A stretch of 11,073 nt of DNA from a virus (lineage: Duplodnaviria; Heunggongvirae; Uroviricota; Caudoviricetes), in IMG/VR virus record IMGVR_UViG_3300033069_001366, positions 111,108 through 122,180 of that record. One strand, 5' to 3'. This document shows, one piece after another, positions 2,091 through 4,194 of the stretch (within the stretch, counting starts at the first letter, position 1; the number at the start of each line of letters is the position of its first letter). The position numbers and the translations under genes were made by a program. The notes below the pieces were generated by a model. The model did not search any database and was not told the DNA's origin. It was given only the letters and a program-made list of their open reading frames with translations.

Positions 2091-2259
2091 CACCATCTGT
2101 TTTATTTATTAAATCTTCAAGAGTTTTAATGGATGAACTCTTTAATACTAAAGGAGAATTATAATTACTAAAAAGTAAATTATAATTGTCCCTCTTTACT
2201 GCACACCATTTATTAGTGTAGCAGTTTTTATGAAAAATCCAGTCATGTATATTATTCAT
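2056..2259 (-). CDS. Hypothetical phage protein
   Basis: 67 aa ORF in the operon, overlapping both neighbours. Confidence 0.7.
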   Translation of the reverse strand: MNNIHDWIFHKNCYTNKWCAVKRDNYNLLFSNYNSPLVLKSSSIKTLEDLINKTDGDEKAISKLITK

Positions 2260-2677
2260 TATTAATATTTAAAAGTTTACAAATATATCTAAATTCATTT
2301 ATTGATTTACATTGTCCAGAAAACAAATGCGTTAAGGGAATTCCCTCTCTAAATACTTCTAACCATCTCGCTTCATAAAATAAAGCCCTTGTTCCTAGTA
2401 TTATATTATTCTTTTTAGCATAAAATCTAAGACCATATTGAAATTCCCCAAATTCCCATCCTTCAGCTTCTATTTGTTCTTTGGTTAGATATGGAGTTCT
2501 AAATATTTTTGAGTAATCTGTTATAGGATCGTGATACATTAAAAGATCTCTAAATCCTTCAGAATTTATAGTAATTTTTTTCCATTCAGGATTGCTTATA
2601 ATATTACTCTGCATCGCCTCACATTCATATCCAACTCTTATATCTTCTATATTTGGTGTATAATATTGTTGACTCAT
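2252..2677 (-). CDS. Hypothetical phage protein
   Basis: 141 aa ORF with YYTPxIE..VGYE and LTKEQIEAEGW patterns reminiscent of Bacteroidota phage ORFans. Confidence 0.8.
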   Translation of the reverse strand: MSQQYYTPNIEDIRVGYECEAMQSNIISNPEWKKITINSEGFRDLLMYHDPITDYSKIFRTPYLTKEQIEAEGWEFGEFQYGLRFYAKKNNIILGTRALFYEARWLEVFREGIPLTHLFSGQCKSINEFRYICKLLNINNE

Positions 2678-2898
2678 TTACTTGATAATGCTGATGTTAA
2701 TGAATAAGTATTTGTAATATAAGGAACTTCTGTTGAAGTAGGCATACCTGCATATCCACCTGTTGTATTTCCAACTCCAATTATATTAGTAAGTCCCTTA
2801 TCATAAGTCCAGTCACTAGGACTCCTTTTTCGGAACATATCATTCCCAAATCCTCTACTATTATTTGTAGAGGTTCCTACTGATTTGGGAGGATTTAA
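2674..2898 (-). CDS. -1 frame extension (74 aa, S/T/G/N-rich) of the 2895..3104 protein; alternatively a 54 aa ORF from ATG 2838
   Basis: The frame is open from 2922 to TGA at 2676-2674, which overlaps the next ATG (ATGA). It fills the only gap in the operon. Confidence 0.65.
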   Translation of the reverse strand, partial: LNPPKSVGTSTNNSRGFGNDMFRKRSPSDWTYDKGLTNIIGVGNTTGGYAGMPTSTEVPYITNTYSLTSALSSK

Positions 2899-2904
2899 AA
2901 ATTT
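2832..2904 (-). other. Programmed -1 ribosomal frameshift signal
   Basis: Slippery heptamer A AAT TTT (2904-2898) directly before TAA, a 7-nt spacer, then a 15-bp stem (2890-2882/2852-2844 and 2872-2867/2858-2853) with a 9-nt bulge that can pair with GTTCC (2836-2832). Confidence 0.7.
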
Positions 2905-3104
2905 CTGATTAAGATTTGTACGTTATCAGGATCTGATGCATACTTTTCATCAATCTCCCTTGTTGCTCTAAACACTACTTCTTTTTCAGTAGCTGCAAGA
3001 ACAAACTTAGGTTCTTGTACTAATACTGAATCTTTGTAAACTTTACCTTTTTCTCCTTCTTCAAACTGATGGTAAATAACAGTGTACTGAAATAAACTTT
3101 TCAT
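2895..3104 (-). CDS. Hypothetical small phage protein (0-frame product)
   Basis: 69 aa ORF ending ILIRNF-stop on the slippery site. Confidence 0.85.
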   Translation of the reverse strand: MKSLFQYTVIYHQFEEGEKGKVYKDSVLVQEPKFVLAATEKEVVFRATREIDEKYASDPDNVQILIRNF

Positions 3105-3115
3105 GGTTTTTATTT

Positions 3116-3778
3116 TTATTTGTTATAAACAAAGTCTAGAATCTTTCCTACAAGATCTGACCTATGATTCTCTTTAAGATTTATTCTTTTTATATCTTTA
3201 ATATTTTTAGAAAGCTCTATTGCAAATTGCAGACCATTTTGAGATTCATGTTTTAAATTTATATCCTGTTGGTCATTATCACCATTTATTATCATCTTTC
3301 CTGTCTTTCCAAGTCTCGTCAGAATAGAAAGCATTTGGAACCTTGTTAAGTTTTGAGCTTCTTCAACTATTAGAACATCATCAATTGTTTTACCTCTTAT
3401 GAAATTAATAGGACCAGCGATGATTCTTTCTGCAGTAATCAAGTCTTGAACTTTTACCTTATCTATACACTTCTCCAGATTTTCTCTGAAGGCTTCCATA
3501 TAAGGCGCAAATTTCTCATTCTTAGAACCAGGAAGAAATCCCATAGAATCATCCTCCAGTTCAATCATTGCTCTGGTTACCAGCACTTTATCACACATCT
3601 TCTTATTAAGAAAATCCAGTGCAGTCTGAGCACCAACAAGAGACTTTCCAGAACCTGCCCTACCTGTAATTATAACTATTTGATTTTCAACAATTAATCT
3701 TTTAGCTTCTTTCTGTTCATCATTTAAAGTAACATTGTACTTTATTTCATTCTTTCTTTCCCTATTTGGATCTTTCAT
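3116..3778 (-). CDS. phoH: PhoH family ATPase
   Basis: LNDEQK, Walker A GRAGSGKS, FIRGKT, IVEEAQN, LTRLGKTGKMIINGD, NHRSDLV motifs. Confidence 0.95.
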   Translation of the reverse strand: MKDPNRERKNEIKYNVTLNDEQKEAKRLIVENQIVIITGRAGSGKSLVGAQTALDFLNKKMCDKVLVTRAMIELEDDSMGFLPGSKNEKFAPYMEAFRENLEKCIDKVKVQDLITAERIIAGPINFIRGKTIDDVLIVEEAQNLTRFQMLSILTRLGKTGKMIINGDNDQQDINLKHESQNGLQFAIELSKNIKDIKRINLKENHRSDLVGKILDFVYNK

Positions 3779-4194
3779 AATAAGTCTTTTAATCTTTGTA
3801 ATACATCTTGAGAAGTATGTCCATCAAAAGGATATTTAGCTTTCTCTGTTTCAGGAATTTTAAAAAGGTCCCAATCTTCTGCTTTATAGTGGTTTGTAAT
3901 CTGTCCTGTAGGTAACATAGCTACAACGACAAACCACCCACCTCCAAAACACAATTCTCCATCATTATGTTTCCAAGATTTGTGAACATCATATTTACTT
4001 GTACTAGAATATTCCCCGTCCCTACCTATCTCTGTAGATCCTTGAGTAGACCATTCATTAAATAATGCAGCATTGTATAACTTTCTAAATTCGTAGAGTT
4101 CTTTAAAGGAGTGATAACCATCAGAGGTTAGTTCTTTTTCCTGAGGAGTTAAGAGAGAAACTGCTAATTGAGTCCCTTGTAAATTAGTTACCAT
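3775..4194 (-). CDS. Conserved phage protein, WDGH-type domain
   Basis: SDGYHSFKELY...KSWKH.DGE...GWF...LPTGQITNHY...WDLF...FDGHT pattern. The stop overlaps the phoH ATG. Confidence 0.75.
   Translation of the reverse strand: MVTNLQGTQLAVSLLTPQEKELTSDGYHSFKELYEFRKLYNAALFNEWSTQGSTEIGRDGEYSSTSKYDVHKSWKHNDGELCFGGGWFVVVAMLPTGQITNHYKAEDWDLFKIPETEKAKYPFDGHTSQDVLQRLKDLL

Follow-up and report, generated by a model that had tools for sequence, protein, structure and literature searches.

A conserved cassette that probably directs programmed -1 ribosomal frameshifting at the very end of a small phage gene

Do some of the ribosomes that translate a small gene of a tailed phage leave its reading frame at the very last codons? 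The question is raised by a stretch of 11,073 nucleotides (nt) from a virus of the Caudoviricetes (IMG/VR record IMGVR_UViG_3300033069_001366, positions 111,108 to 122,180), hereafter the window, which forms the final 11 kilobases (kb) of a record of 122,180 base pairs (bp) with a genome GC content of 30.8%. Its minus strand carries a gene for a protein of 69 amino acids (aa; 3104..2895, all coordinates being those of the window unless a locus is named) whose codons end AGA AAT TTT TAA and whose product ends LIRNF. In the zero frame, these last codons contain the slippery heptamer A_AAT_TTT (2904-2898, minus strand), of the X_XXY_YYZ type, and the zero-frame stop TAA (2897-2895) abuts it directly. 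An initial annotation, made from the letters of this DNA alone, proposed a -1 frameshift at A_AAT_TTT that would yield products of 69 and 143 aa from a non-tail gene, and the comparative evidence reported here strongly supports this proposal. With high confidence, on the strength of sequence comparison, we interpret the locus as a programmed -1 ribosomal frameshift cassette located at the extreme 3' end of a small phage gene.

The heptamer at the stop and the features downstream of it that had been proposed are confirmed by the sequence of the window. The heptamer is followed by a 7-nt spacer (2897-2891, minus strand), whose first three nucleotides are the TAA itself, and then by a hairpin (2890-2844, minus strand), the putative stimulator, in which 15 bp are arranged as two helices with a 9-nt bulge and an 8-nt loop. 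The outer arms read TCCCAAATC and GATTTGGGA, and the inner arms CTCTAC and GTAGAG. Folding with ViennaRNA returns the identical 15 bp in register 8+7 with a free energy of -19.1 kcal/mol, a stability that corresponds to a z-score of -3.77 and is reached by 1 of 200 dinucleotide shuffles. After a slip at the heptamer, the -1 frame (2904..2674, minus strand) runs for 76 codons plus a TGA and reads KF-LNPPK...SSK; because it adds 74 residues past Asn-Phe, the predicted products are of 69 and 143 aa. An open off-frame of 76 codons is unlikely by chance at 30.8% GC. It contains no ATG in its first 20 codons; the first one in frame is codon 23 (2838-2836), which starts an alternative 54-aa reading frame present in the list of open reading frames (ORFs). 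By eye, no Shine-Dalgarno-like stimulator is apparent upstream of the shift site in the window sequence, of which no scan was made.

Is this arrangement a peculiarity of one genome or the property of a family? A word-indexed protein search gave 20 relatives with 59-77% identity to the 69-aa protein, all of which have NF as their C-terminus (RNF in 19 and QNF in one, P0012 being taken at its true TAG stop), and the corresponding homolog DNA was taken from viral and metagenome contigs. Throughout this AAT-type set of 21 loci, the final codons are xxA AAT TTT (TTC once), immediately followed by TAA, TAG or TGA. Except in two loci truncated by the end of the contig, the open -1 frame measures 53-80 codons, and the -1 peptides begin KFLxxP and end N-x-Y-[TS]-L-T-x-A, the Tyr of this motif being invariant in the extension alignment (A2). 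Locus L027 shows an RPF end with C_CCT_TTT. An exhaustive profile search over 1.84 billion representatives extended the family to 205 clusters (50% identity) at E<=1e-3; among the best 150 of the 205 cluster representatives, 104 end in PF, 95 of them in RPF, and nine end in NF, and the 69-aa domain nearly always extends to the final residue of the representatives. A search for longer proteins related to the 69-aa protein found none, though the exhaustive profile search did recover fusions. DNA was added for six profile-search proteins, for 49 further viral loci and for an uncultured 735-kb phage, giving a final comparison set of 73 non-redundant phage loci with GC contents of 30-70%.

The heptamer, the RNA structure and the open -1 frame, which had been named as the features to look for in homologs, all recur across this set. 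A canonical X_XXY_YYZ heptamer lies directly 5' of the stop in 63 of the 73 loci, whereas the first base is mismatched (n_XXY_YYZ) in four, only T_TTT is left in one (L041, CGC TCT TTT) and no heptamer is present in five. The canonical, mismatched and T_TTT-only loci together make up 68 frameshift-type loci, and in every one of them the zero-frame stop abuts the shift site (TAG in 38, TAA in 22, TGA in 8). The heptamer occurs in two types. A_AAT_TTY is found in 30 loci, 28 of which have a GC content below 0.40, and is preceded without exception by a codon ending in A (AGA 24, CGA 3, AAA 2, CAA 1). C_CCT_TTN, anticipated as C_CCT_TTT for homologs ending in RPF, is found in 37 of the 68 frameshift-type loci and is preceded by a codon ending in C in 33 of the 37 (CGC 32, TGC 1; four exceptions). 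AT-rich phages thus use A_AAT_TTY and most other phages C_CCT_TTY, and seven C_CCT_TTN loci with a GC content below 0.40 still use CGC, which is expected to be a rare Arg codon there. Since the arginine is kept and its codon shifts to suit the heptamer, much of the R-[PN]-F end is the footprint of a nucleotide signal.

A different ending is seen in locus L037 (1399-1590), which closes with CGC CCC TTT TGA, not an X_XXY_YYZ heptamer, and in which a 60-codon open +1 frame (PFDQQPE...) is found in addition to a 57-codon Arg-rich -1 frame. Ribosomes are classically prone to shift to +1 at UUU_UGA, and this lineage may therefore have switched to +1 frameshifting.

The downstream RNA structure is likewise a family property. 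A perfect helix of 4-14 bp (median 8) that starts 4-9 nt past the heptamer (mode 5) and encloses a region of 5-116 nt was scored in 67 loci, with a mean helix score of 20.1 as compared with 13.3 +/- 3.3 at random positions within the same loci (p 4e-27). The arms are wholly different between loci, for example TCCCAAATC/GATTTGGGA, GCCATGAGAAT/ATTCTCATGGC and GGGTCACTG/CAGTGACCC. In a swap test, in which the first 24 nt of one locus were joined to the downstream sequence of another locus with similar GC, the swapped helix score was 14.4 as against 20.1 for the loci's own sequence, which scored higher in 57 of the 67 cases (p 4e-10). Because a locus's own downstream sequence outperforms a swapped one, we conclude that the two helix arms co-evolve. 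The initial annotation also envisaged a pseudoknot formed by GGAAC (2877-2873) and GTTCC (2836-2832); both sequences are indeed present in the window, but their pairing is at the level of chance (z 0.42, matched by 34% of shuffles), as is, with a mean z of 0.28 over 21 loci, the pairing of loop or bulge with the 40 nt downstream.

The -1 frame itself is selected to stay open. In 65 loci it is open for 47-156 codons (median 68), whereas the median open length among homologs is 11 codons for the +1 frame and 13 for the zero frame past its stop. The -1 peptide begins [KP]FL in 61 of the 68 frameshift-type loci, and a Tyr/Phe motif lies within its last 25 residues in 59 of 65, as compared with a mean of 12.0 and a maximum of 21 in composition-matched shuffled peptides. 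The window version of this family-conserved C-terminal motif is NTYSLTSA (2712-2689, minus strand; residues 65-72 of the -1 peptide); it occurs once, and no second copy is found in the six frames of the 122-kb genome. The tail has the S/T/G/N-rich character already ascribed to it, with 49% S/T/G/N and 60% S/T/G/N/A/P/Q, and outside the terminal motif it diverges fast among homologs. In an AlphaFold2 model of a natural fusion of domain and tail, the tail has a predicted local distance difference test score (pLDDT) below 50 and the domain one above 90; as MAFFT misaligned the extension rows in combined alignments, this fusion was folded with domain rows only. The tail would act like a disordered linker. 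In the uncultured 735-kb phage (LR756501.1; L087:786-1360), the cassette is present as CGC CCT TTT TAA, and the -1 extension comprises 190 codons with collagen-like G-x-y repeats (SGTSGTSG...). These repeats alone hint that in certain phages the extension may have a fibrous or structural character.

Natural controls are provided by lineages in which no frame change is needed. In L022 and L025, domain and tail are encoded in one frame (P0022, 123 aa, with the junction IRKFLKN and the motif NSYTLTS), and the DNA of these loci lacks both the heptamer and the helix, the helix score of 12-14 being that of the background. Seven further single-frame fusions are found among the cluster representatives; a YTLT/YTIT-type motif is recognisable at the end of the extension in P0025, P0026, P0034 and P0045, and the terminal motif is less clear in P0029, P0086 and P0157. 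Conversely, in the LIKKF-ending lineage (L004, L006, L007 and L013) the tail is gone, and the heptamer and the helix are gone with it. The signals are present where a change of frame is needed and missing in both the L022/L025 fusion and the tail-less lineage.

Several observations weigh against a programmed frameshift at these loci. The first base of the heptamer is mismatched in four of the 68 frameshift-type loci and only T_TTT remains in one. By a simple contiguous-pair score, 39% of the helices fall below the 95th percentile of the controls. The ATG at codon 23 of the window's -1 ORF leaves a free-standing 54-aa product possible in this phage. Lastly, between close pairs of homologs the substitutions in the extension are spread over the three codon positions (e.g. 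12:7:14 and 17:19:18); since a third-position bias is absent, selection on the extension is visible only as openness of the frame, composition and terminal motif.

From the signals described above, we infer the following course of events. Most ribosomes would decode AGA AAU UUU and terminate at UAA, releasing the 69-aa globular protein. The hairpin 7 nt downstream would hold up a fraction of the ribosomes, and on these the tRNA-Asn in the P site (AAU to AAA) and the tRNA-Phe in the A site (UUU to UUU) would move back by one base, so that decoding would resume at UUA AAU CCU... and produce the 143-aa isoform with the junction ...R-N-F-L-N-P-P-K. A second route is conceivable because the stop directly follows U_UUU: with the stop codon waiting in the A site, the peptidyl-tRNA-Phe might slip on its own, and the protein made would be identical. 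The efficiency of the shift would determine how much of the domain is made bare and how much of it carries a flexible tether with a docking peptide at its end, a logic that may resemble that of lambda gpG/gpGT or of dnaX gamma/tau.

The explanation that best withstands the data, apart from tandem slippage, concerns this second route. It retains the same cassette and the same products and makes stop-stimulated slippage of a single tRNA on U_UUU the main event, in keeping with the abutting stop in 68 of 68 loci, with the invariant T_TTN, and with the four loci in which the first heptamer base is mismatched and the one (L041) in which XXY is lost. However, XXX and the matching preceding base are kept in 63 of the 68 loci, including CGC in AT-rich genomes. 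Such retention would be expected only with re-pairing of the P-site tRNA on AAU or CCU as well, and it thus counts for tandem slippage, to which the distance of 4-9 nt between heptamer and helix is also suited. We consider it unlikely that the single-tRNA route predominates; slippage of a stop-stalled peptidyl-tRNA-Phe may nevertheless contribute, given that the stop always abuts U_UUU and that the first base is relaxed in a few loci.

Could the extension instead be a gene of its own? In that case the window would hold two genes translated independently, one for the 69-aa protein and one for a 54-aa protein that starts at ATG 2838, and the heptamer and hairpin would be coincidental or serve, for example, mRNA stability. 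The ATG does exist, the 54-aa ORF is listed in the window, and public assemblies sometimes carry a separate small gene at this position (52 aa in L031 and 64 aa in L033). Against such an independent start, an ATG is missing ahead of the last 15 codons in 35 of 65 -1 ORFs, and in 17 of 65 none of ATG, GTG and TTG occurs; because many homologous -1 ORFs have no start codon, ATG 2838 is not a feature of the family. Nor is a start available upstream in most cases: 5' of the heptamer the median open length of the -1 frame is just 7 codons, and between the previous stop and the heptamer this frame contains no ATG, GTG or TTG in 63 of 68 loci. Moreover, the -1 frame is always open back to the heptamer, with the same [KP]FL start in 61 of 68, the heptamer, abutting stop and helix are kept over GC contents of 30-70%, and in-frame fusions occur naturally. 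Two independent genes are a very improbable account of the window, and as a family-wide explanation independent initiation is excluded by these comparisons.

Least credible of all is that the change of frame reflects transcriptional slippage on a T run, an indel introduced by sequencing or assembly, or decay of the gene. The window does offer five consecutive T's (TTTT and the first base of TAA), but RNA polymerase slips productively only on runs of about 8-9, and the 17 loci with C_CCT_TTC and a stop have a run of only three. Slippage of this kind gives no role to the XXX part, the matching preceding base or the spaced helix, and an assembly error or pseudogene is excluded because the arrangement recurs in 68 independently assembled loci. 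Stop-codon reassignment was likewise rejected, as all three stops are used and the zero frame recloses after the median of 13 codons.

What does the protein look like, and in what company is its gene found? AlphaFold2 predicts the 69-aa domain (20 homologs) with a mean pLDDT of 93.8 as a long beta-hairpin (residues 3-37), helices at 40-50 and 53-56 and a strand at 62-68. A Foldseek search with this domain returned nothing at E<=0.001 in PDB or BFVD and nothing above noise in AFDB, and a search of the ESM Atlas returned unnamed viral clusters only. The best VIA-align Z values were 6.2 for PurS (60 residues, root-mean-square deviation 2.9) and 6.0 for eL20 (L18Ae), in a tool whose noise level is 7-8. 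A predicted complex of the tail's last 37 residues with the 69-aa domain scored 0.28, the mark being 0.32.

In the window, the neighbours upstream on the same strand are a WDGH-domain protein (3775-4194, minus strand; PF25311, E 1e-34), which shares a 4-nt overlap with the start of the PhoH-like ATPase, and this short ATPase itself (3116-3778, minus strand; 220 aa); the downstream neighbours are uncharacterised proteins. A WDGH homolog is also found near the family gene in L016. Among the genes in the same minus-strand string as the 69-aa gene is a 187-aa ORF (1533-2096) that weakly matches the zinc-binding C-terminal portion of Peptidase_M54 (archaemetzincin; E 2e-6). The neighbours in other phages comprise RecA, dUTPase, HNH, MazG, dNMP kinase, NADAR and nucleoside deoxyribosyltransferase. 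These neighbours suggest an early or middle, non-structural setting, against which weighs a possible virion role of the protein, given the G-x-y repeats in the tail of the 735-kb phage. The position downstream of phoH, to which the initial annotation drew attention, is incidental: phoH lies within 1.5 kb in only one other locus, and there it is located downstream.

The TGA of the -1 frame (2676-2674) and the ATG of the next gene (2677-2675) do overlap as ATGA (2677-2674, minus strand), the next gene encoding a protein of 141 aa (2677..2252, minus strand). The proposal that frameshifting gates the translational coupling to this gene is not borne out by the homologs, as the overlap is seen in only two of the 16 loci examined, the window and L020, and the downstream gene varies between phages. 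The product of the gene that follows the cassette starts MSQQYYTP in the window (2252-2677, minus strand), and M(T/N)QFFYTRKEP in L020 and in the tail-less L004, L006 and L007; these genes possibly belong to the same family, which would be the only recurrent downstream neighbour seen.

How does this cassette compare with established cases of recoding? The conserved -1 frameshift of phage tail assembly chaperone genes, exemplified by lambda gpG/gpGT (Atkins et al. 2016, PMC5009743), shares with it an X_XXY_YYZ site near the 3' end of a small gene, short and C-terminally extended forms with a common N-terminal domain, a presumed fixed ratio between the two, and a long form that is an in-frame fusion in some relatives. 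Unlike gpG/gpGT, the 69-aa family has no tail assembly chaperone match in Pfam or PHROGs and its genes do not lie among major tail and tape measure genes. The lambda heptamer is G_GGA_AAG, the one found here A_AAU_UUU or C_CCU_UUY; the stop here abuts the heptamer, and the extension appears to be a disordered linker with a short motif instead of a folded T domain.

The -1 frameshifts that end capsid genes, namely those of the Lactobacillus phage A2 major head protein and of T3/T7 gene 10A/10B (PMC5009743; Garcia et al. 2004, cited in PMC10885494), are similar in that the slip takes place in the last zero-frame codons and a downstream RNA structure stimulates it, yielding a major short and a minor extended form. 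They concern capsid proteins with folded or Ig-like extensions, unlike the 69-aa protein with its low-complexity tail, and capsid genes as opposed to the nucleotide-metabolism setting found here. In variants of dnaX, where tau arises from -1 frameshifting and the gamma stop lies directly past the shift site (PMC5009743), we again find a stop directly 3' of the shift site, a long product that adds an interaction region to a core, and a hairpin stimulator; dnaX, however, belongs to the replication genes of cells and shares neither sequence nor fold with the present family.

Textbook though the mechanism is, Pfam, PHROGs and Rfam contain neither the family nor its cassette: no Pfam or PHROG match exists for the 69-aa window protein or for 46 family members, the cassette is unmatched in Rfam, and no description of it was found in the published literature. 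The window protein has no nucleotide or protein match in the phage GenBank collection, in which the uncultured 735-kb phage, via an RPF-type member, is the only match, so that no record of a cultured phage contains the family or its cassette, and a pattern scan of cellular genomes did not find a relative. Databases carry the family only as hypothetical proteins of 66-74 aa, after which comes what looks like a gap or a spurious small gene. The public gene calls at L031:1761-1919, L033:1443-1637, L036:1346-1573 and L029:1073-1351 never join the extension to the 69-aa gene; they present it as a small gene of its own, as a gene that starts further upstream and overlaps or, in L029, as read-through under a code in which TAG is Gln.

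Considering all of these data jointly, we lean, with modest confidence, towards a broader view. In it, small proteins from phages, a 735-kb one among them, would form a family of at least 205 clusters at 50% identity that has not been described before and is defined by a built-in recoding cassette. The near-invariant R-[P/N]-F-stop would be the frameshift signal and not a protein-level requirement, with the heptamer switching between A_AAU_UUU and C_CCU_UUY together with a matching Arg codon, and with repeated replacement of the cassette by in-frame fusions or its loss. The abutting stop would offer two chances to slip, first in tandem and then from a stop-stalled P site, and the tethered docking peptide of the long isoform would recruit a partner.

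The finding would be of value to specialists in recoding and in phage annotation. Nearly all annotated phage frameshifts lie in tail chaperone genes (in one large set of joined phage genes, 2397 of 2476 are of this type; PMC10885494), and the present family offers a broadly conserved case that appears to lie outside structural genes. It suggests a simple annotation rule for its members, a gene ending R-[PN]-F, then a stop, then a hairpin, and it illustrates how a recoding signal can pass for protein conservation. With two heptamer types, relaxed first bases, fusions, losses and a possible +1 variant, the family also constitutes a natural series for following the evolution of a frameshift site over a range of GC contents. 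For the phages themselves, the motif at the end of the tail may serve as a handle for finding the partner of the long isoform, and hence the function of the protein.

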